Positions 1,246-16,254 of a stretch of 42,592 nucleotides of DNA are shown here, piece after piece. Both the position numbers and the translations under genes were made by a program. The stretch is from Alphaproteobacteria bacterium (GTDB lineage: Bacteria > Pseudomonadota > Alphaproteobacteria > Rickettsiales > UBA8987), in assembly GCA_046302855.1 (NCBI GenBank), contig JBKCHH010000062.1:1-42592 (forward strand), in the 5' to 3' direction. The notes below the pieces were generated by a model. The model saw nothing but the letters and a program-made list of their open reading frames with translations, did not search any database and was not told where the DNA came from. The stretch's first letter is position 1. Every line of letters begins with the position of its first letter.

Positions 1246-3702
1246 ATGTTAAAGCTATTTGCCAGAAAAACTAAAAATGACTTTTATACAAAAAGGGAAT
1301 ACAGGGTTTCTAACTTCATTCCTTATGAATCTCACTTTGATTCAACCTGTATAATAACCAAAAACAAAGATTTGATTTCTGTTTTTAAAGTTGGTGGTTT
1401 TATTTTTGAAACAGCCGATGATGAAGATTTAGACGCCAAAAAAGGCAATAGAAACAATTTTTTGCGTTCCATTGATTCTTCTAAATTTGGTTTTTGGTTC
1501 CACACAGTTCGTTCAAAAAAAATCGTTGATTTAGAAGGGGATTTTAAAGATGAATTTACGCAAACACTAAACAATGCTTGGCGGGATAGATACAAAAGAA
1601 ATAGAAGCTACATTAACGAACATTATGTTTCGGTAGTAATTACTAGCCCTAAAAAAGGCTTTGCTAATAAGCTACAAAATTTAATCTCTAGAGCTCAACG
1701 AAATTTAAGTAAGGAAGCAGAAAAGGCAGAGCTTTTTGAAAGAAGAAGAGAGCTAGCTGAAATGACCAACCGCTTTATGAGTTCCTTTGCCAGTTACAAT
1801 CCAAAGGTGCTTGGAATTAGGGAAACTGAAAATGGGCTTTACTCTGAAATAATAGAGTTCTTCTCGCTACTTATAAACTTTGGTTCTAAGCAAAAATATT
1901 TGGTGCCACAAAAAAGTATTTCTTCTTACCTTGCCTTTAACCGCCTTTATTTTAGCTCATTTGCAAAACTAATAGAATGTAGAACCTTTGATGGTGGCAG
2001 AAGGTTTGCCGGTATTTTAAACATAAAAAAATATGGCAATGTTACTTATCCGGGAATTTTTGATGTGTTTTTGCAAATGCCCTTTGAATATATTATTTCG
2101 CAAGTATATGTGGCGGCGGAAAGAAATGCGGTAATTAGCAAAATGTCCACTCAACAAAAAAGGCTAGCTTCCATTGGGGATAAGGCAATTACTCAAACAA
2201 TGGAACTAACGGCCGCTATGGATATGACGCAAGGTGGCGAAATTAACTTTGGCGACCACTTTTTTTCCCTGGTAATTTTTGATGAGGATATAAAAAGGTT
2301 AGAAGATAATCTAAACGCCTGCTACGGCGAAATGATTAATATGGGGCTTACGCCAACGCGGGAATCTATGTCTATGCAGGGTTCATTTTGGGCATTATTG
2401 CCAGATAATTTTGAATATATCTCTCGAAGAACCTTAATTAACACCCTAAATGTTGCCTCCTTTGTATCTTTTCATAACTACCCTGTGGGCAAGGCTAATG
2501 GAAACCACTGGGGGCCTGCTGTTACCCTACTTGAAACCACCTCTGGCACTCCCTACTTTTTTAACTTTCATGTAAGGGATATAGGTCACACCGTAATTAT
2601 TGGGCCAACGGGAACGGGTAAAACCTTGCTAATGAACTTTCTAGTGGCACAAGGGCAAAAATTTAAGGGTAGAACCTACTTTTTTGATAAGGATAGAGGT
2701 GCAGAAATATTCCTAAAATCAATTAATGCCTTCCACACCCTTATTCAACCCCGTGATCCTTGCGGATTTAACCCTTTACAATTAGCAGATACAAAAAGAA
2801 ACCGAGCCTTTTTAGTAGATTGGATTGTTTCTATGGCAATGGCGATAAATCCAGATAAGTCTTTATCCTCACAGGATTTTGAAAGGATAGATGAAGCCAT
2901 TGAAGGTAACTATAAGTTAGATGTAAGTGAAAGAAGGCTTAGAAACATCATCCCCTTTTTAGGTTTTGAAGTGCCAGATTCTTTACCAAACAGATTAAAA
3001 CTTTGGCATTCAGACGGCCCTTATGCTGGCCTGTTTGATAATGAAAAGGATGAGCTAGACTTAACTAAGCATAGCGTATATGGCTTTGATATGACCGATG
3101 TGCTATATGATAAGGTAAGCTTAGGTCCTGCCCTTTTGTATCTTTTCCATCGCATAAATATTTCGCTAGATGGCACCCCTACTATGATAGTGCTAGATGA
3201 GGCTTGGAGTATGATAGATAACGATATTTTTGCTCCAAAACTAAAAAACTGGTTAAAGGTTTTAAGAAAACTAAATGCAATGGTAATTTTTGCCACCCAA
3301 ACCGTTGAAGATTTAGGCAATAGTAAAATTAATGATACTTTAGTGCAGCAGACCTCTACCCAAATATTTTTGGCAAACAGCAGGGCTACCGAAATGTATC
3401 GCAAAAACTTTATGCTAACGCAAAGGGAATTTTTGCTTATAAAAACTATGGACCCCGCTTCCAGATATTTTCTATTAAAGCAGGATGAAGAAAAGGTGGT
3501 AGCAAGGGTGGATTTAACCGGCATGGACGATATAATTGCCGTGCTTTCGGCACGCGCTGATACTGCCCTTATTATGGATAAGGTTATAGAAGAGGTTGGT
3601 AAAGATCCACACATTTGGGTGCCAATTTTCCAAAAAAGGGTTGCCGAGCAGAGCAAAATAACCCGCAAACAAAGGGAAATTGAGGCAATGGTTTATTCTT
3701 GA
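1246..3702 (+). CDS. virB4: Type IV secretion system ATPase VirB4
   Basis: 818 aa; GHTVIIGPTGTGKT Walker A, FFDKDRG, IVLDEAW Walker B, LRKLN..FATQ motifs. Confidence 0.96.
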   Translation: MLKLFARKTKNDFYTKREYRVSNFIPYESHFDSTCIITKNKDLISVFKVGGFIFETADDEDLDAKKGNRNNFLRSIDSSKFGFWFHTVRSKKIVDLEGDFKDEFTQTLNNAWRDRYKRNRSYINEHYVSVVITSPKKGFANKLQNLISRAQRNLSKEAEKAELFERRRELAEMTNRFMSSFASYNPKVLGIRETENGLYSEIIEFFSLLINFGSKQKYLVPQKSISSYLAFNRLYFSSFAKLIECRTFDGGRRFAGILNIKKYGNVTYPGIFDVFLQMPFEYIISQVYVAAERNAVISKMSTQQKRLASIGDKAITQTMELTAAMDMTQGGEINFGDHFFSLVIFDEDIKRLEDNLNACYGEMINMGLTPTRESMSMQGSFWALLPDNFEYISRRTLINTLNVASFVSFHNYPVGKANGNHWGPAVTLLETTSGTPYFFNFHVRDIGHTVIIGPTGTGKTLLMNFLVAQGQKFKGRTYFFDKDRGAEIFLKSINAFHTLIQPRDPCGFNPLQLADTKRNRAFLVDWIVSMAMAINPDKSLSSQDFERIDEAIEGNYKLDVSERRLRNIIPFLGFEVPDSLPNRLKLWHSDGPYAGLFDNEKDELDLTKHSVYGFDMTDVLYDKVSLGPALLYLFHRINISLDGTPTMIVLDEAWSMIDNDIFAPKLKNWLKVLRKLNAMVIFATQTVEDLGNSKINDTLVQQTSTQIFLANSRATEMYRKNFMLTQREFLLIKTMDPASRYFLLKQDEEKVVARVDLTGMDDIIAVLSARADTALIMDKVIEEVGKDPHIWVPIFQKRVAEQSKITRKQREIEAMVYS

Positions 3703-4928: not shown

Positions 4929-5636
4929 ATGGCAGATAAAAAACCGGCGAAGGAAGAGAAAAAAGACGATAAAAAAGAAGCCCCAAAAGATACTGGTAAA
5001 GAAGTAAAAAAAGATGGCGCTGCTCAACCAACGGTTGCAGGGGCAGAAGGTGGTGAGGGAGAAGTAGCAAAGCCAAAATCAAAAAAGAAACTTTTAATTA
5101 TAGCAGCTGGCGCAATTTTAGTTTTAGGCCTAGTGGCAGCATTTTTGCTTCTAGGTGGAAAAAAGCACGCTGAGGAGGAAGAGGCTGGCGATTCTAAGGA
5201 TGGCAAAAAAGAAGAAAAAAAAGATGAGCATGGAAAAGATGCCAAAAAGGATGCCAAGAAAGATGCTAAGGGTGGTCATGGCGGTGGTAAAAAAGGCGAG
5301 GAGTCTTTATCTCTACCAAGTGATGTAAAAGAAATAGTTTATATGGATTTAAAAGAGTTTTTAGTAAACCTAGAAACTGGTTCAAACGAGGTTAGCTTTT
5401 TAAAAATGTCCATATCATTAGAATTGCCAGATGAAGAAACCAAAGCGGTTATAGAAAATAATCTACCTAGAATTAGGGATATAATCCAAGTTTACTTAAG
5501 GGAGCTTAAAGGCTCTGAGCTTAAAGGTTCAGCTGGCCTGCAAAGGCTTAGAGAAGAATTAATCTTTAGAATTAACAACACCATTAAGCCGCGTGTTATA
5601 AGGAATGTTTTATTCAAAGAAATATTGGTGCAGTAG
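4929..5636 (+). CDS. fliL: Flagellar basal body-associated protein FliL
   Basis: KKKLLII plus single TM, charged linker, C-terminal EFLVNL...FLKMSISLE...PRIRDII..YLREL...L.GSAGLQRLREEL..RIN...VLFKEILVQ. Confidence 0.92.
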   Translation: MADKKPAKEEKKDDKKEAPKDTGKEVKKDGAAQPTVAGAEGGEGEVAKPKSKKKLLIIAAGAILVLGLVAAFLLLGGKKHAEEEEAGDSKDGKKEEKKDEHGKDAKKDAKKDAKGGHGGGKKGEESLSLPSDVKEIVYMDLKEFLVNLETGSNEVSFLKMSISLELPDEETKAVIENNLPRIRDIIQVYLRELKGSELKGSAGLQRLREELIFRINNTIKPRVIRNVLFKEILVQ

Positions 5637-5640
5637 TAAT

Positions 5641-6713
5641 TGTAAGGGTTGGGTAATTCACTGCTGGAAATTGATTTTATCATATAACTATACTTTTATA
5701 AGGTTGCAAGCCGTTTAAAGCGCGGGTGCAGGCCTTATTTCGTTGTAATAAACGATGTATTTTAGAAGCTCTTCTTTGAAATGCTCGATTGATTCAAAGT
5801 AAGTTTCGTTAATTAAATCATCGTTTAAGGTACGCCAGAAGCGTTCTATTTTGCCATTAGTTTGCGGGCGATAAGGCTTGGTGTACCTATGTTTTATGCC
5901 CATTTCTAAAAGCATTTTTTCGAATGGATGCCCCTCTTTTTTTGCTGAGGTTTTTATACCAAACTCTGATCCGTTATCAGTAATGGCTTCTAAAAATTCA
6001 ATTTTGTAATTTCTTTTTATGTGATTAAAACAACGCATGGTAGCAAACATTACCGTTAAAGATTTGATGTCATCAACCACCTCCACCCAAGCTGTACGGC
6101 TTTGATCGTCAACCACACCAACCAAGAAATATCTTTTATTAGCATTGAAAATTAAATTTTTGTTTAGGTAGTGACAATCAATGTGAGCAAGCTCTCCCGC
6201 TTTTTCTCTGATGATTCTACGCTTCTCAACTTTCTGTTTTGGTTGTAATCTATTCATATTATTTCTTTGAAATATTGCGTAAATACATGAAACTGAAGGA
6301 GTTTTTTCACCAAGTTCACCGCTCAAAATATCATGAATTTCGTACTTGCTCAAGCCTCTTTTTCTTATTTCCACAACCCTGTTTTCTATAGAAATATCTA
6401 TTCTTCTGCTTAAATATTTCGGACCCCTTCTCTGTGGCACTAGGCTTTCAGTATCGCCACTTTGCTTGTAGCGATTATAGTACTTTGAAAAGTTTTGATG
6501 GCAAATCCCTCTATCCTCATAAAAATCTTTAACAAAACGGTACTTCTTATGCTCTCCCTTCTTTATAAGCTCATATTCAGTTATCCAACTGCTGTATCTA
6601 TTCACTTGGTCTCTTTTTAAGGTCTCCTCGAAGCTGATAGCTCTTTCCATATCTTCCTCCCAGAAGTTTGTTTTTTACTATCAATTTCAGCAGTGAATTA
6701 CTAGACCTTTACA
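5641..6713 (-). mobile_element. IS481-family insertion sequence, 1073 bp
   Basis: TGT...ACA ends. Imperfect TIRs 5641-5675 (TGTAAGGGTTGGGTAATTCACTGCTGGAAATTGAT) and 6680-6713 (reverse complement TGTAAAGGTCTAGTAATTCACTGCTGAAATTGAT). Flanks GTAAT / GCAAT. Confidence 0.9.
5715..6650 (-). CDS. IS481-family DDE transposase (C-terminus apparently frameshifted)
   Basis: GELAHID, VVDDQSR, TDNGSEF, PYRPQTNGKIERFWRTL, YYNEIRP motifs; lies inside the TIRs. Confidence 0.9.
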   Translation of the reverse strand: MERAISFEETLKRDQVNRYSSWITEYELIKKGEHKKYRFVKDFYEDRGICHQNFSKYYNRYKQSGDTESLVPQRRGPKYLSRRIDISIENRVVEIRKRGLSKYEIHDILSGELGEKTPSVSCIYAIFQRNNMNRLQPKQKVEKRRIIREKAGELAHIDCHYLNKNLIFNANKRYFLVGVVDDQSRTAWVEVVDDIKSLTVMFATMRCFNHIKRNYKIEFLEAITDNGSEFGIKTSAKKEGHPFEKMLLEMGIKHRYTKPYRPQTNGKIERFWRTLNDDLINETYFESIEHFKEELLKYIVYYNEIRPAPAL

Positions 6714-7837: not shown

Positions 7838-9385
7838 GTGCAATTATCTTTATTACTAGAGAAAATAAAAGATACGGATGAATATTTAAACCATATTGGT
7901 GGTTTGAAAGATGCTATTCGGCAAGTAAATATTGAAGCCTTCGCCATAAATTCCAAAAAGGTGAAGCCAAACAGCTTTTTTGTTACCCTGCCAAGTAGTG
8001 ATTCTTCCAAAAAAAACGAGCTTGCCTATATTACGGAAGCCATAAAAAATGGTGCAAGGGCAGTTTTAATCAATGAAGAAATTTTTTTAAGTGATGATAT
8101 AAAAAAGAAAATTGCAGAAAATAGCCAAGTGCTGTTTTTCACCTCGCACGAACCTATTAAAACGCTTGGGATTTTGCTAAGAATCTTTTTTGGCTATAAA
8201 ATTGAAAAGGAAGGCAAGCTATTCCCAGAAGTTTACGCCGTAACTGGCACCAATGGTAAAAGTTCAGTGGTTGCCTTTTTAAGGCAAATTTGGGAAGGTT
8301 TTCACATTCCCTCTGCCTCAATTGGCACGCTTGGCGTTTATTATGCCAATACCTTTAAAGACCTTTCAATCACCACGCCAGACATAATAACCCTATATGA
8401 AGAAATCTATTTTTTAGCCAGCAAGGGAATCAAAAAAATTGCTCTGGAAGCCTCAAGTCATGGAATTGAGCAGGGTAGGATTGAAGGGCTAACTATAAAC
8501 TATGCGGGTTTTACCAATATAACGCATGATCACCTAGATTATCACAAAACTTTTGAAAATTATCTGAGTGCCAAAAAACTGTTATTTACCAAATACTTAA
8601 ATAAGAATGGTATTGGTGTTTTTAATATAGATAGTGAACCAATAGCGGAAATTCTAGAAGAGCTGGCAAATAAAGAAATCCACATGCTAACCTACGGCTA
8701 CAACAAAAAAGCCTCAATTAGAATAGAAAATAGGTATATAAGGCAATTTACCCAGCATTTTACTCTGCAATATCAAAATAATGAATATGAAATTACCACG
8801 CCCCTTATTGGCAAGTTTCAAGTAGAAAACTTGGTCTGTGCCATATCCCTGTGCTTGGCAAGTGGCGTTTACATTAAAGATATTATCCCACTAATTTCAA
8901 ACATTAAGGCTCCAAGCGGTAGAATGGAAAATTTAGGCGATATTTTAGAAAATGGCTCAAGGGTGATAGTAGATTACGCCCATACGCCAGATGGGCTAGA
9001 AAAGGTGTTGCAGGCAATTAGAGAATATTCTTCCTCAATTCCCAAAAAACTAATTGTGGTTTTTGGCTGTGGTGGTGATAGGGATAAGACCAAACGCCCC
9101 AAAATGGGCGAAATTGCTGGAAAATATGCCGATGTGGTAATTGTAACGGATGATAATCCAAGAACTGAAAGCCCAGAGCAGATAAGAACAGAAATCTTAA
9201 AAAACCTAGTTGGTTTTAGTATAGGGGATAGAAAACTTGCCATCAAACAAGCTCTTGGATTATTGCGGCATGGCGATACCTTACTAATAGCTGGCAAGGG
9301 GCACGAAAAAACGCAAATCTATGGGGCTAAAACATTGCCCTTTTCAGATAAAGAAATAGCTCTAGAGTTGGCGAAAGAGGTGTAA
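7838..9385 (+). CDS. murE: UDP-N-acetylmuramoyl-L-alanyl-D-glutamate--2,6-diaminopimelate ligase
   Basis: [46 protein letters not shown] (DAP-type), AGKGHE. Confidence 0.96.
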   Translation: MQLSLLLEKIKDTDEYLNHIGGLKDAIRQVNIEAFAINSKKVKPNSFFVTLPSSDSSKKNELAYITEAIKNGARAVLINEEIFLSDDIKKKIAENSQVLFFTSHEPIKTLGILLRIFFGYKIEKEGKLFPEVYAVTGTNGKSSVVAFLRQIWEGFHIPSASIGTLGVYYANTFKDLSITTPDIITLYEEIYFLASKGIKKIALEASSHGIEQGRIEGLTINYAGFTNITHDHLDYHKTFENYLSAKKLLFTKYLNKNGIGVFNIDSEPIAEILEELANKEIHMLTYGYNKKASIRIENRYIRQFTQHFTLQYQNNEYEITTPLIGKFQVENLVCAISLCLASGVYIKDIIPLISNIKAPSGRMENLGDILENGSRVIVDYAHTPDGLEKVLQAIREYSSSIPKKLIVVFGCGGDRDKTKRPKMGEIAGKYADVVIVTDDNPRTESPEQIRTEILKNLVGFSIGDRKLAIKQALGLLRHGDTLLIAGKGHEKTQIYGAKTLPFSDKEIALELAKEV

Positions 9386-9387
9386 AA

Positions 9388-9975
9388 ATGATTAAGCTAA
9401 TAGTTGGCCTTGGCAATGTTGGCAAAAAATATGAAAATACCCGCCATAATGTTGGCTTTATGCTAATTCACTATCTTATTGATAAACTTAAAGTTATTGA
9501 TGAAACAACGAAATTCCAAAGCAAAATTTACAAAATAGAAGGCCAAGATTTTTCAAGTAAAATTAACTTTGCCGTGCCCAATAACATTTACTTTCAAATG
9601 CCACACACCTTAATGAATAACTCTGGCGATGCGGTGCAGAGCTTTTGCCACTTTCACAAGATTTTAGAGGAGGAGGTTTTGGTAATTCATGATGATTTAG
9701 ACCTTGCCTTCGCCAAGGTAAAGGTAAAACAAGCAGGGGGCAATGCTGGGCATAATGGTTTAAGGGATATAGATGCAAAACTTGGCAAAAACTACTTTCG
9801 CATTCGCATAGGCATTGGCAAACCTTTAGATAAAAACGATACTAGCAACTTTGTGCTACAGAATTTTTCTGTTCAAGAGAGGAAGGCTTTAGATGAGCTA
9901 TTCACCAAATTTTTTGATAGCGAGCTAAAAAATTCTCTGCAGGCGATTGAAAAGGGTGTGAATTATGGGTTTTAG
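9388..9975 (+). CDS. pth: Peptidyl-tRNA hydrolase
   Basis: LIVGLGN...YENTRHNVGF, MNNSG, HDDLD, GHNGL, RIRIGIG. Confidence 0.96.
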   Translation: MIKLIVGLGNVGKKYENTRHNVGFMLIHYLIDKLKVIDETTKFQSKIYKIEGQDFSSKINFAVPNNIYFQMPHTLMNNSGDAVQSFCHFHKILEEEVLVIHDDLDLAFAKVKVKQAGGNAGHNGLRDIDAKLGKNYFRIRIGIGKPLDKNDTSNFVLQNFSVQERKALDELFTKFFDSELKNSLQAIEKGVNYGF

Positions 9976-10018
9976 TTATTGGTTTTTTTGGGGGAGGGGG
10001 TAGGAAAGGTGGGTTTTT

Positions 10019-10051
10019 AAGAAAGGCGGGGTTCCTGTTAGGGAACCCGCC
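10019..10051 (-). terminator. Putative intrinsic terminator of the 66-codon gene
   Basis: Minus strand GGCGGGTTCC-CTAACA-GGAACCCCGCC stem (one bulge) followed by TTTCTT, 23 bp after the stop codon. Confidence 0.65.
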
Positions 10052-10074
10052 AGACTTAAAGTGCAAAGACAGCG

Positions 10075-10275
10075 TTATTTGCTGTCGCTGTCAGCCTCAG
10101 AGGCTTGAGAGGCTTGGAGGACGCCGATCGTGAGATCGAAAGCCTTTGCGACCCCATCAATCACCCCGCCCCTTGCCGTTTCCAGGTTGTCTGTTACTAA
10201 AACAAGGGAACTAAACTGAATGCGACCATCGCCTCTTTCGAATGTGATGGTTATGTTCCAATGATTTTTAGACAT
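10075..10275 (-). CDS. Small hypothetical protein, 66 aa
   Basis: ATG preceded by GAGGAcacc RBS; promoter upstream, terminator downstream; ~49% GC by hand count (98/201). No family recognised. Confidence 0.6.
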   Translation of the reverse strand: MSKNHWNITITFERGDGRIQFSSLVLVTDNLETARGGVIDGVAKAFDLTIGVLQASQASEADSDSK

Positions 10276-10343
10276 GGTGTCCTCAATGGTTTACAAAAAA
10301 ATGAAAAGTGCCTTCCTCCAAAGGCGTAAATATGTACAACCGC

Positions 10344-10374
10344 AGTTTAGCAGAGAGAGAGAGAGAGTTGTCAA
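10344..10374 (-). promoter_or_regulatory. Sigma70-type promoter with (CT)8 microsatellite in the spacer
   Basis: TTGACA (10374-10369), 19-bp spacer containing (CT)8 (10367-10352), TAAACT (10349-10344). Confidence 0.65.
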
Positions 10375-10412
10375 TGTAAAATATTGATTTCAGCAAAGAT
10401 TTTTTTTAAGTT

Positions 10413-10428
10413 TTAACCAAATTTTAAC
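10413..10428. promoter_or_regulatory. Possible CtrA box
   Basis: TTAA-CCAAATT-TTAAC fits TTAA-N7-TTAAC; about 40 bp upstream of the -35 above. Chance matches are likely in AT-rich DNA. Confidence 0.35.
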
Positions 10429-10435
10429 ACTCGCT

Positions 10436-10615
10436 GTCATTGCGATGAGCTTTAGCGAAGAAGCAATCCATAAAAATGGTTTTTCTTGCAAAAAATTGCT
10501 TGTTATCCAAGCCTCGCCTTGTTTATGGATTGCTTCGTCCTTTCAGTCCTCGCAATGACGATTTTAGCTAGAATGGATTGCCTCTGCAAGAGCAAAGCTC
10601 TCGCTCGCAATGACG
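10436..10615. repeat. Palindromic repeat doublet (10436-10560) plus a third arm (10574-10615)
   Basis: GTCATTGCGA...GAAGCAATCCATAAA / TTTATGGATTGCTTCG...CTCGCAATGACG, then TGGATTGCC..GAGCAAAGCTC..CTCGCAATGACG; 11 bp from the fusA stop. Confidence 0.88.
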
Positions 10616-10626
10616 AATACACTACC

Positions 10627-12708
10627 TTAAGCCGCTTTTTTTCTAATTTCTTCGGCTATGGCGTTTGGAGTGGCAGCGTAGTTGGCAAACTGCATGGTGA
10701 ACTGTGCCCTGCCTTGCGACATAGATCTAAGAGTCGACACATAGCCAAACATAGAGGCCAGTGGCACCTTAGCACTAATTACTTTGGCGTTGCCCCTTTG
10801 TGTCATTTCTAAAATCTGTCCACGCCTAGAGTTTAAATCACCGATAATATCGCCCATATAGTCTTCCGGCGTTACTACTTCTACACCCATAATTGGCTCC
10901 AGAAGAACAGGGCCTGCCTGCTTCATACCCTCACGAAAGGCAGCACGCGCTGCAATTTCGAAAGCAAGGGCAGACGAATCCACCGCGTGGAAAGCACCAT
11001 CTTCAAGGGTCACCTTAAAGTCTATGGTTGGATAGCCAGCCATTACGCCCTTAGTAGCCTCTAGCTGAATTCCCTTATCTACAGCTGGGATATATTCTTT
11101 TGGAACATTACCACCAACAACGGTAGATTCAAACTCATAGCCTTTTCCAGCCTCTTGTGGTTCAAATTTAACTTCAATTTTAGCATATTGACCCGCACCA
11201 CCTGATTGCTTTTTGTGAACATAAGTTAGCTCAAAAGGCTTGGTGATAGTTTCACGATAAGCAACTTGAGGTGCACCAACATTGGCCTCCACCTTAAATT
11301 CACGCTTCATTCTATCCACAATAATTTCTAGGTGAAGCTCACCCATTCCTTTAAGAATGGTTTGCCCAGTTTCTTCATCACTTTTAACTTGAAGAGAAGG
11401 ATCTTCAGCCACCAGCCTTTGAATAGCGGTGGACATTTTTTCTTGGTCTGCTTTAGTCTTTGGTTCAATGGCAAGTTCAATTACTGGCTCTGGGAAATCC
11501 ATTTTTTCAAGCACAATAGGAAAATCTGGATCACACAAGGTATCACCCGTTGTTACTGATTTCATTCCCACTAAAGCAACAATATCACCCGCAACGGCTT
11601 GCTTTATGTCTTCACGGTTGTTAGCATGCATTAATAACATTCTACCCACCCGCTCTTTTTTATCTTTAGTTGAATTTATTAGCCCATCACCTGCACTTAA
11701 AACACCAGAATAAATGCGAAGGAAAATTAAATTACCCACAAATGGGTCATTCATTAGCTTAAAGGCAAGACCAGAGAATTTTTCATTATCGATTCTTTTT
11801 CTAGTGATTGGCTTATCTGTGCCAACTTCTACGCCTTCAGCATCACTTAAATCAGTAGGGCAGGGTAGGTAATCCACAACTGCATCTAGCAAACACTGCA
11901 CACCCTTGTTTTTAAAGGCTGAGCCACAAAGAACGGGAATAAAGGTTCCAGCTATTGTGCCTTTGCGAATGCAGGCTTTAATTTCAGCATTGGAAATGGT
12001 TTCGCCGTTTAGATAACGCTCCATAATGTCATTATCCATTTCAACGGCAGTTTCAAATAACTTAATTCTATAGGTTTCTGCCTTTGCCTTTAGTTCGGCT
12101 GGAATTTCTACAATATCGAACTTGGCACCAAGCTCTTCACCACTCCAAATTAAAGCCTTGTTCAAAATTAAATCTACCACGCCTTTAAAATTTTCTTCCA
12201 CACCTATTGGAAGCAAGGTAACTAAGGGTTTTGCCCCAAGCCTTTCTGAAATCATATCTACACAACGGTAGAAATCTGCCCCAGTTCTATCTAGTTTGTT
12301 CACAAAGCACATTCTTGGCACGCCATATTTATCTGCCTGACGCCACACAGTTTCAGATTGTGGCTCAACCCCTGCCACCCCATCAAATACAGTAACAGCA
12401 CCATCTAGAACCCTTAGAGACCGCTCTACTTCAATGGTAAAATCCACGTGCCCCGGTGTATCTATAATATTGATTCTATGCCCATTCCAAAAACAAGTTG
12501 TGGCGGCTGAAGTTATGGTTATGCCCCTTTCCCTTTCCTGCTCCATCCAGTCCATAGTGGCGGCACCTTCGTGAACCTCTCCAATCTTGTGTGATTTACC
12601 AGTATAATATAGAATACGCTCGGTAGTTGTGGTTTTCCCAGCATCAATGTGAGCCATTATGCCTATGTTACGATACTTAGAAATTGGATATTGTCTAATG
12701 TTGGACAT
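10627..12708 (-). CDS. fusA: Elongation factor G
   Basis: [52 protein letters not shown]; 693 aa. Confidence 0.99.
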
Positions 12709-14369: not shown

Positions 14370-15131
14370 TTATAGGTTTCTTATAACTAAATCTATAATT
14401 TCTATTGTATCGTGTTTATGAGAGGGACTAAGCATTCCAAAGATTTTAATCATTTCAATTATTATAAATGCATTATCTTTGTCAATTTTAAAATCTGCAA
14501 ATTCTTTTAAATTAGCACACCTTCCAACCAAAGGAATATCAGAATTTAGCTCTGTTATAGGGAAGCAAAAATATAACATAGGCTGAACCCCAACAGCTCG
14601 TTGCTTTTCTCTAATCGTAATTTCTGTTATTATTTCATAATGTTTAAATTTATGAATAAGTTGAGGATATTCTATTTTTAAAACCTTAAAATCTAAACCA
14701 TTTATCTTTTCGCTAACAGGATGGGTTCTTTTTATTGTGCAATGAGGATGCTTTGAAATTAAACTATTTCCTTCTAAATTTTTGATAAAATTTTTTAAAT
14801 TTTCTAATTCTTTTATTTTGATTATATTAAAAGTAGCTAAATGATATAGATATTCACTTAATTCATAAAGAGCCTTTTTCTTGGTATTATAGGCAATAAA
14901 ATTAAGGTTTTTTAGGGTAGTTAAATCGATTTTATCGCTTGTAACTTCAATATCATATCCTATCTGCCACTCAATATAGTTTTTTTGATTAAATTTATTG
15001 CTTCTACTAGCAAACGGCAATCCATATCCATAAATATTATCTCTTTCTTTTATTCTTATTTTCCCTTTTGTTGTGGTAAGTGGTATAGGAACGATAATTT
15101 CTTTATTTTCTTTACTAACTTTTATAAACAT
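14370..15131 (-). CDS. R.PabI-family restriction enzyme (HALFPIPE fold, DNA glycosylase type)
   Basis: IPLT..GKIRIK.R, YIEWQIGYD, YELSE, KQRAVGVQPMLYFC and C-terminal SPSHKHD (H-x-x-D) recalled as PabI-family motifs; overlaps the adjacent methyltransferase; ATG at 15131. Confidence 0.82.
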   Translation of the reverse strand: MFIKVSKENKEIIVPIPLTTTKGKIRIKERDNIYGYGLPFASRSNKFNQKNYIEWQIGYDIEVTSDKIDLTTLKNLNFIAYNTKKKALYELSEYLYHLATFNIIKIKELENLKNFIKNLEGNSLISKHPHCTIKRTHPVSEKINGLDFKVLKIEYPQLIHKFKHYEIITEITIREKQRAVGVQPMLYFCFPITELNSDIPLVGRCANLKEFADFKIDKDNAFIIIEMIKIFGMLSPSHKHDTIEIIDLVIRNL

Positions 15132-16254
15132 AGTGATTATCAATTAATATTTTAAAATATTCTTGTATTTTTTCTTTTGACTCACTTACCGAAATATCAT
15201 CTCTTGTATTAATATATTTCTTCAAAAAACTATTTCTAGTTAAGCATTCCTGAACAAAATAATTTTTATATTTTTGAAATTTATTATTATTTATGAATAC
15301 ATCAAGATTCCCAAAGTAATAAGGCATCAAGTGGCTAAATTGCTTGAATACATCCACATAAACATAATAATCTAACTTATTTTTATCTACTATTATAGCA
15401 TTATATCCAAAATCTTTAACAAATGTTTGGTTTCTCTTTAAGGCGTTAATGTCCCGCATAGTCCAAAACAAAATATCATCTTTCTTTGGCAAAACATTTT
15501 TTAAAGGATATTTATTTATATAATTTGGGATAAAATCAAACTCCTTTAGTTTAAAACACTTTTTATCAATTGTTTCAAAATTGAAATTTCTTATATATTC
15601 ATAATCCATTCCCTCTTTATCTTTTGAATACAAAGCAATAATTATTGGAAAAGATATACCTTTTGATGTTTCTTTAAAAGTTGAACTATCAATTAAGATG
15701 CCATCAATTAATTTATAGCAACTGCTAAAATTTCTTAATAAATTGAAATTTGATTTTTTAATTAGATAAGATAATGGATGCAAAACACAAACTACATCTG
15801 CTTTAAGTTTAGCATAAGATAATAAAAAAGATATTCCGTAATCTCTTGTGCGAACATCGTCATCAATTTTTATATTATCTTTTTTTATATCACTTCTAAT
15901 TATTGATGTAGTATCGTTATAAGGGGGGTTTCCTATAATAATCAATTTATCATTTTTATCAATTTTAAATTCTTCTCTATTGATGTTTAATAGGGCATTT
16001 TTATTAAAAACTTCTATATTAGGAAAATTTATTTTAGTTTTATCTGCCGCAATTTTATCAAAATCGTTTGCTTTTTTTCTACAATCTATATCACTCATAA
16101 AAAAGTTTCCATATCCACAAGAACTATCTAGAACTATAGATTCTTTGCTTAAAAATGGTTTTATTAAATTCCACGCAATCTCTACATATTCAGGCGGGGT
16201 ATAAAATGCCCCTAGATTTATTTTATCCTTATATTGTAAGTGATGTTGATTCAT
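15115..16254 (-). CDS. N6-adenine DNA methyltransferase, cognate of the PabI-family enzyme
   Basis: LGAFYTP, LDSSCGYGNF (motif I), IIGNPPYN (motif IV), gamma-class order; visibly more AT-rich than flanking genes. Confidence 0.9.
   Translation of the reverse strand: MNQHHLQYKDKINLGAFYTPPEYVEIAWNLIKPFLSKESIVLDSSCGYGNFFMSDIDCRKKANDFDKIAADKTKINFPNIEVFNKNALLNINREEFKIDKNDKLIIIGNPPYNDTTSIIRSDIKKDNIKIDDDVRTRDYGISFLLSYAKLKADVVCVLHPLSYLIKKSNFNLLRNFSSCYKLIDGILIDSSTFKETSKGISFPIIIALYSKDKEGMDYEYIRNFNFETIDKKCFKLKEFDFIPNYINKYPLKNVLPKKDDILFWTMRDINALKRNQTFVKDFGYNAIIVDKNKLDYYVYVDVFKQFSHLMPYYFGNLDVFINNNKFQKYKNYFVQECLTRNSFLKKYINTRDDISVSESKEKIQEYFKILIDNHYVYKS

Follow-up and report, generated by a model that had tools for sequence, protein, structure and literature searches.

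Results

Organization of the locus

We analysed a contig of 42,592 nt (JBKCHH010000062.1, positions 1 to 42,592 of the forward strand, assembly GCA_046302855.1; hereafter the window) from an uncultured alphaproteobacterium of the order Rickettsiales, and in particular positions 10019-10428, which carry on the minus strand a small open reading frame (ORF) behind its own predicted promoter. This segment is probably a complete, autonomous unit for an orphan protein of 66 amino acids, P0001, and its promoter belongs to a lineage-restricted family of 17 reused cassettes with a slippage-prone CT-repeat spacer. The neighbours of the unit are murE and pth, both on the plus strand, and fusA, which lies upstream on the minus strand in the same direction as the P0001 gene.

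Read along the minus strand, the unit begins with the box TTAAAATTTGGTTAAAA (10427-10411), a direct repeat (TTAA-N7-TTAA, period 11 bp) that is followed by A, and not by C as given in a preliminary description of the locus. An A/T-rich block, AAATCAATATTTTACA (10375-10390), stands directly 5′ of the −35 hexamer TTGACA (10374-10369), which is separated from the −10 hexamer TAAACT (10349-10344) by a 19-nt spacer, A(CT)8GC (10368-10350), of which (CT)8 fills 10367-10352. Together, the final T of the tract and the GC that follows it (within 10350-10368) make a TGN extended −10 motif. The transcription start is predicted near 10338-10335, where a GTAC (10337-10334) is found 7 nt after the −10 hexamer. 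Then come a 5′ leader hairpin, GCCTTTGGAGGAAGGC (10325-10310), a Shine-Dalgarno-like GAGGA (10284-10280) placed 4 nt 5′ of an ATG, and the ORF of 66 codons (10275-10075, 49% GC), which is closed by an intrinsic terminator, GGCGGGTTCC...GGAACCCCGCC followed by TTTCTT (10019-10051). The terminator stem (10048-10029) has 7 pairs, 5 of them GC, with the T run TTTCTT next to it, as expected of a Rho-independent terminator. A palindromic repeat of ~125 bp (family B, 10436-10565) that resembles a miniature inverted-repeat transposable element (MITE) lies directly 5′ of the cassette, after the stop codon of fusA and before the box.

Every element listed in the preliminary description, from the −35 hexamer and the CT spacer through the −10, GTAC, hairpin and GAGGA to the ORF and terminator, was found in its place, and the idea of a module complete with promoter, leader, small ORF and terminator was borne out. 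A consensus promoter scan did not list the promoter at 10374-10344, because it accepts only spacers of 16-18 nt. A search of the window against Rfam gave no match at or above the gathering score; the sole match at E≤1 within 9950-10650 was a chance microRNA match in the family B repeat, and was discarded.

A family of seventeen promoter cassettes

When the intergenic DNA was compared by BLAST with the genome that contains the window (1.34 Mb in 101 contigs, 36.6% GC; the source genome), 10430-10300 proved to be repeated, and positions 10432-10332 (minus strand) turned out to represent a cassette of ~100 bp that has 17 full copies. The locus is not a one-off; the preliminary description had advised a search for other TTGACA-(CT)n promoters, and these exist here as this 17-copy family. 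A layout found 17 times over in one genome is not due to chance. In each copy the order is the TTAAAAWTTGGTTAAAA box, the A/T-rich block, TTGACA, A(CT)nG[GC] and TAAAHT, and the cassette units are dispersed singly among housekeeping genes across the genome. The copy set given by a regular-expression search agrees with that from BLAST, in which 12 of the 16 other copies align to the window copy over 74-139 nt with an identity of 80% or more. A sequence-only covariance model recovered all of these 17 (70-92 bits) and, in addition, a copy truncated at a contig end and a weak partial one. The simple pattern TTGACA-(CT)4-TAAAHT occurs 13 times in the source genome.

In the alignment of the copies the box is identical in 17/17 copies except at one W position, the columns of the A/T-rich block are near-invariant, and TTGACA is kept in 16/17. 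TAAAHT is found in 15/17, with T1, A2 and T6 kept, and TGN immediately precedes the −10 in 15/17 copies (TGC then TAAACT at the window locus). Similarity among the copies ends ~15 nt past the −10. The leader hairpin GCCTTTGGAGGAAGGC is identical in copy C81, and similar GGAGG-containing hairpins are present in several others. The conserved T1, A2 and T6 with a free fifth base, the TGN motif and the perfect −35 all favour a promoter of the sigma-70 type whose −10 is extended and whose A/T-rich block would be UP-element-like.

Two sites in the source genome are eroded relatives of the cassette. TTGACA-(CT)n has been lost at C59:50545, where repeat B and the box persist together with TGCTAAACT, a −10-like sequence, and at C5:37972-38032 a diverged copy precedes a 41-aa hydrophobic ORF with a terminator. 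Family B itself, whose palindromic arms are GTCATTGCGAGG...CTCGCAATGAC, is present in the genome dozens of times, with matches to both strands and often without a cassette, and pieces of it were matched in 15 of the 40 relatives searched, in several families of the order. It lies no more than 60 nt 5′ of the cassette in 11 of the 16 copies that can be judged, and at least 5 of these share an identical junction.

G-run/T-run motifs such as GGGGCGGTTTTTTGGG occur just 5′ of several cassettes, and their C/A-rich mirror images just past several module terminators (sites at C3:1040-1056, C83:2286-2306, C95:634-649 and C28:585-598, and at window 9980-10020). In its strict form the motif is found 12 times genome-wide, 4 of these beside modules. 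These motifs could be borders of the units or insulators.

Variation of the CT tract

The number of CT units ranges from 4 to 9 among the 17 copies, so that the −35/−10 spacers span 11-21 bp and differ between copies in 2-bp steps. A spacer of 11 bp is present in one copy, spacers of 13, 15 and 17 bp in four copies each, and spacers of 19 and 21 bp in two copies each. CT/AG tracts of at least 5 units number 14 in the 1.34-Mb source genome, and all 14 lie inside cassettes; repeats of every other dinucleotide class stop at 5 units or fewer. Spacer length and flank identity are uncorrelated (Spearman rho 0.08), and the closest pair of copies, at 91.5% identity, has spacers of 17 vs 21 bp. Since spacer length is unrelated to flank similarity, the tract changes much faster than its flanks, as slippage predicts. 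Four tracts are interrupted by point changes, and three of these four have a spacer of exactly 17 bp. The loss of one CT unit at the window locus would give a 17-nt spacer, as had been pointed out in the preliminary description.

The stretch or part of it is contained in 20 metagenome runs from freshwater, lake water or drinking water, none of which is recorded as an RNA run. We checked the tract in four runs from four studies, using contigs anchored on the unique ORF side (X1, 931 nt; X2, 3688 nt; X3, 401 nt; X5, 255 nt). The locus-specific contigs of all four runs cross the tract gap-free and carry (CT)8, which is thus the majority allele in 4/4 runs; these contigs are a consensus, in which minority alleles are invisible. 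Because (CT)8 recurs in contigs of four runs, it is real, and an assembly artefact is ruled out. Rows with an indel at 10351/10352 were set aside as belonging to paralogous cassettes, because the contigs in question leave the locus at 10342. The tract is slippage-prone on an evolutionary scale, given n of 4 to 9 among 17 paralogous copies, and no length variation was seen at the window locus. Of the outcomes that would have spoken against the switching proposed in the preliminary description, an assembly error does not apply, and an invariant tract length is only approached, as far as consensus contigs can tell.

The small open reading frames

Each cassette precedes a different ORF, of 27-163 aa. 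In an all-vs-all BLASTP of the 17 ORFs the best pair had E=0.19, and tblastn found no paralogs of them in the source genome (self matches only). Among the 13 of the 17 module ORFs that were scanned against Pfam, none had a match above the curated cut-off; one had sub-threshold coiled-coil matches. The ORFs look coding and compositionally foreign: GC content at the first codon position exceeds that at the second (GC1>GC2) in 16/17, and third-position GC content (GC3) averages 0.51, vs 0.32 (sd 0.04) in 280 long ORFs of the source genome. Past the stop codon, a hairpin followed by a T run was found in 13/17 by script, one of these distant, and GC-rich hairpins in 15/17 by eye.

Only one of the three module ORFs searched has a relative: the ORF of copy C28a (C28:181-501, L016) is 62% identical to P0004, a 100-aa protein from a 588-bp contig of another data set. 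The longest module ORF, of 163 aa (C100:19869-20360; L026:4177-4668), contains an in-frame duplication of a unit of ~80 aa with ...IKTGDFSRCEEV..., and no homolog of it besides itself was found in a large protein collection.

Homology and structure searches of the window peptide, which the preliminary description had suggested, gave neither a true homolog nor a significant structural match. Against 5.8 billion proteins P0001 found only itself. HMMER against 1.84 billion representatives gave 12 weak matches (E 6e-7 to 6e-4), all of them to long proteins matched in 4-9 stretches; by BLASTP, P0001 is 29-33% identical to a repeat unit of ~48 aa in one of these, and one long repeat protein that weakly matches P0001 has a tail-spike chaperone domain. 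We do not take these matches as homology, and they serve as a lead at most. The single-sequence AlphaFold model of P0001 has a pLDDT of 77 and a predicted beta-beta-alpha-beta fold, for which Foldseek gave no match in the PDB at E≤0.001. The best Atlas feature score, 0.78, points to viral hypothetical proteins and is below 0.9, which makes it only a lead. A phage origin of the cassette units is likewise a lead. The unrecognised small protein of the preliminary description appears to be encoded, going by GC1>GC2 across the family and the confidence of the P0001 model, in a gene of foreign composition.

The upstream box and the GTAC site

The consensus bound by CtrA is TTAA-N7-TTAA, and most CtrA-activated promoters have the site at −35 (PMC11264516). 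The box TTAAAATTTGGTTAAAA fits this consensus, a motif that is common by chance in the AT-rich source genome, where TTAA occurs 13,970 times. The box is centred ~80 nt 5′ of the predicted start. Just two OmpR-type regulators are encoded in the source genome, one PhoB-like (contig C27) and one CtrA-like (contig C15). We hypothesize that the box is a candidate site for a CtrA-type response regulator; we go no further, because it lies far 5′ of the −35, unlike the site in most CtrA-activated promoters.

GTAC occurs seven times in the window, six times inside a transposase gene (5715-6650, minus strand) and once at 10334-10337. Genome-wide, 318 GTAC sites are observed vs 1712 expected (observed/expected 0.19), and ACGT (0.11), GGCC, GCGC and GATC are likewise depleted. 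The transposase gene, which encodes an rve integrase core, has six of the seven sites, which suggests a recent arrival whose sites are still unpurged. The window also carries a gene for an R.PabI-family restriction enzyme (14370-15143, minus strand) and an adjoining ORF of 379 aa that has an NPPY motif and no Pfam or NCBIfam match; the region 14370-16254 probably encodes a GTAC restriction-modification pair. As R.PabI recognises GTAC, and as a gene of its family is present in the window, the GTAC at 10334 would be a methylation target. GTAC is, however, found at that position in only 1/17 cassettes. It is thus no part of the cassette design, and the control by the nearby methyltransferase that had been envisaged would be at most a quirk of the window locus.

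Distribution of the cassette

Exact-pattern scans of the genome, metagenome and viral contig collections (genome_contigs, metagenome_contigs and viral_contigs) found no true copy of the cassette; they returned six loci, each of which lacks every other cassette feature and was rejected. The pattern TTGACA-(CT)4-TAAAHT is present in 0/200 other genomes of the order. The cassette model, run against 17 other genomes of the family, gave one weak match, in a genome of another genus (G005). That genome has three promoters of the form TTGACAAATAG(CT)5-6[GC|AG]TAAA[AC]T (L053-L055; C1:24672-24702, C7:11555-11583 and C8:17717-17745), with spacers of 17, 17 and 19 bp. Two of the three have a TTAA-N7-TTAA box, TTAATATTTAGTTAA, ending 4 nt 5′ of the −35, and all three precede orphan-like ORFs of 108-147 aa with raised GC. 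As these related promoters occur in another genus, the design predates the genus of the source genome.

In the window (7838-9975) murE is followed by pth, whereas pth is followed by murE in 7 of the 16 relative loci (L059-L072), and fusA is beside pth in 0/16; these relatives are distant, with Pth 42-52% identical. Elsewhere the window encodes a VirB4-type type IV secretion ATPase (1246-3702) and a FliL homolog (4929-5636). Together with the traits of this small, freshwater-metagenome genome of 36.6% GC, they are suggestive of a host-associated lifestyle.

Discussion

The explanation that we favour is a sigma-70-type promoter that has been reused in front of unrelated small genes. The invariant TTAA-N7-TTAA box would probably be bound by a response regulator, for which CtrA is the best candidate, and the consensus −35, the near-pure (CT)n spacer and the TGN-extended −10 would then drive transcription of a different foreign-composition small gene at each cassette, usually with its own terminator. 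The (CT)n would act as a hot spot for replication slippage, and since slippage would have left spacings of 11-21 bp in 2-bp steps among the copies, promoter geometry, and probably promoter strength as well, would be set gene by gene. In E. coli promoters a spacer of 17±1 bp is optimal, and an extended −10 can partly replace the −35; because of this, spacer length would be expected to tune strength rather than to give a clean ON/OFF switch. At the window locus the (CT)8 tract gives 19 bp, which would be sub-optimal, and transcription would lean on the extended −10 and upstream contacts. The preliminary description had the promoter in a low state at this spacing; the TGN motif, with its presence in 15/17 copies, suggests that it need not be OFF.

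Several observations weigh against this explanation. The optimal 17-bp spacing is present in only 4/17 copies, and seven copies are at ≤13 or at 21 bp. The −35 and the box are nonetheless kept where the spacer is 11-13 or 21 bp; this would be surprising if serving as a −35 at a set distance were the sole role of TTGACA. The box ends 36 nt 5′ of TTGACA and does not lie over the −35, and the CtrA-like protein, whose best NCBIfam match is CtrA, scores 342.9 bits with the cut-off at 350. The start site and the use of the promoter are both predictions. The length of the ORFs, which exceeds that of at least 94% of shuffles in 15/17 and would speak for coding, comes from a test that is partly circular because the ends of the regions were set by the ORF. 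Finally, 3/4 of the run contigs reach just 14-18 nt beyond the tract, and the four runs may include the source sample of the assembly.

The conserved −35 and box at poor spacings may mean real switching, or a role of the upstream block that is independent of distance. Because this conservation is unexplained, phase variation stays alive as a rival: the cassettes would be contingency loci in which (CT)n slips often, 17 genes switch stochastically between strong promoters at 17 bp and weak or silent ones at 15, at 19 and beyond, and the window gene is now low, giving combinatorial heterogeneity in the population. We find this plausible in kind and rather unlikely as a description of these promoters. 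A simple-sequence repeat lies exactly between −35 and −10, as in hifA/hifB with (TA)n and porA with poly-G (PMC3899988), and CT repeats are described as hypermutable in oipA of Helicobacter (PMC10564699). Tract length is saturated relative to flank divergence, every long CT tract of the source genome is in these promoters, and 17 bp is where three of the four interrupted tracts have become fixed, all of which would fit frequent slippage. Yet the tract is (CT)8 in the locus-specific contigs of all four runs, from four studies, within the limits of a consensus, and the extended −10 in 15/17 copies could loosen the dependence on spacing. Moreover, five copies have only 4-5 units. Short tracts of this size are expected to slip rarely. 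The broadest form of the idea is a genome-wide contingency regulon in an uncultured freshwater, probably host-associated alphaproteobacterium, with 17 mini-proteins of foreign composition behind CtrA-boxed promoters, (CT)n spacers slipping independently, up to 2^17 expression combinations and units that are perhaps mobile and phage-derived. We regard it as speculative and, taken whole, unlikely.

It is also conceivable, in our judgement with small probability, that the CT tract and the upstream block are not a sigma-70 spacer with its −35. Transcription would then come from an upstream promoter (−10 TATTTT or TATATT), with (CU)n starting the transcript as a leader, or (CT)n would be a protein-binding or non-B-DNA element whose length is irrelevant. 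The tolerated range of 11-21 bp with strong conservation on both sides would follow readily, and AT-rich −10-like hexamers do occur just 5′ of TTGACA. On the other hand, T1, A2 and T6 of TAAAHT, the variable fifth base and TGN resemble a −10, and the three promoters of G005 have canonical spacings of 17, 17 and 19 bp. Folding predicted that (CU)n would pair with the ribosome-binding site in only 3/17 leaders, and a leader role of this kind was discarded. A non-coding RNA as the product, with the 66-codon frame fortuitous, is very improbable. It would account for a GC-rich island in an AT-rich genome, for a transcript that folds better than shuffles (z=−3.1) and for the lack of a true homolog of P0001. 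However, the coding-type GC1>GC2 in 16/17, ORFs that fill their units, GAGGA 4 nt before the ATG, a confident single-sequence protein model and the lack of an Rfam match all argue for a protein, and the 17 transcripts share no sequence past the leader.

Returning to the reused promoter, its reading as a slippage-prone spacer has consequences of its own. If tract length sets or switches promoter strength, the 17 genes form a natural allelic series of the same promoter with 11-21 bp spacers. Repeat-controlled promoters would, if this is true, extend from a few pathogens to an environmental alphaproteobacterium with a reduced genome, and their targets from surface antigens that are paralogs to orphan mini-proteins that are unrelated to one another. 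A true contingency regulon would amount to a form of bet-hedging known to date chiefly from cultured pathogens. The cassette further draws attention to 17 small proteins that would be overlooked, or not connected with one another, in standard annotation.

Comparison with known systems

In the open-access literature we found nothing on promoter spacers made of CT repeats, nor on conserved promoters before small ORFs in alphaproteobacterial endosymbionts. Several known systems resemble the cassette in part. The presence of TTAA-N7-TTAA and of a CtrA-like gene in the source genome recalls the CtrA-dependent promoters of Alphaproteobacteria, whereas the site is at −35 in most of these and ~80 nt 5′ of the predicted start here (PMC11264516). 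The (TA)n promoters of hifA/hifB in Haemophilus influenzae and the poly-G promoter of porA in Neisseria meningitidis likewise have a repeat in the −35/−10 spacer, and a change in the number of units alters their geometry. They differ in that the effect was shown experimentally and in cultured pathogens (PMC3899988), while here the unit is CT, 17 copies stand before unrelated genes, the −10 is extended, and (CT)8 is found in four runs. The CT tract of oipA in Helicobacter pylori shares the unit and its hypermutability by slipped-strand mispairing, but it is located within the 5′ part of the coding sequence, where it takes effect through frameshifts, and not in a promoter spacer (PMC10564699).

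The closest analogue in layout is the vlp family of Mycoplasma hyorhinis, in which several genes each have one conserved promoter with its own length-variable tract. Each vlp promoter reportedly has a poly(A) tract in its spacer, an observation attributed to Citti and Wise in 1995. Seven vlp genes with combinatorial expression are described in PMC4198240. The vlp genes are paralogous surface lipoproteins at one locus, whereas the genes behind the cassettes are unrelated orphans, dispersed singly among housekeeping genes.

As with Correia elements, a dispersed short repeat supplies promoters here, and the MITE-like family B abuts 11 of 16 cassettes. Correia elements of Neisseria are MITEs that carry promoters. 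The cassette, unlike them, has no terminal inverted repeats by inspection, and family B is often found without a cassette. Correia elements are named in PMC3575422, the study of putative mobile promoters by Nijveen, Matus-Garcia and van Passel (2012). These promoters are defined there by ≥80% identity over ≥50 nt upstream of non-paralogous coding sequences in one genome, an operational definition under which the 17-copy cassette falls both by its identity and by its non-paralogous ORFs. Most families of putative mobile promoters are pairs, according to the same text (PMC3575422), in contrast to the 17 members of the cassette with their microsatellite spacer and matched mini-genes of foreign composition. 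Even without switching, the cassette stands out among cases of promoter reuse as unusually large and clean.

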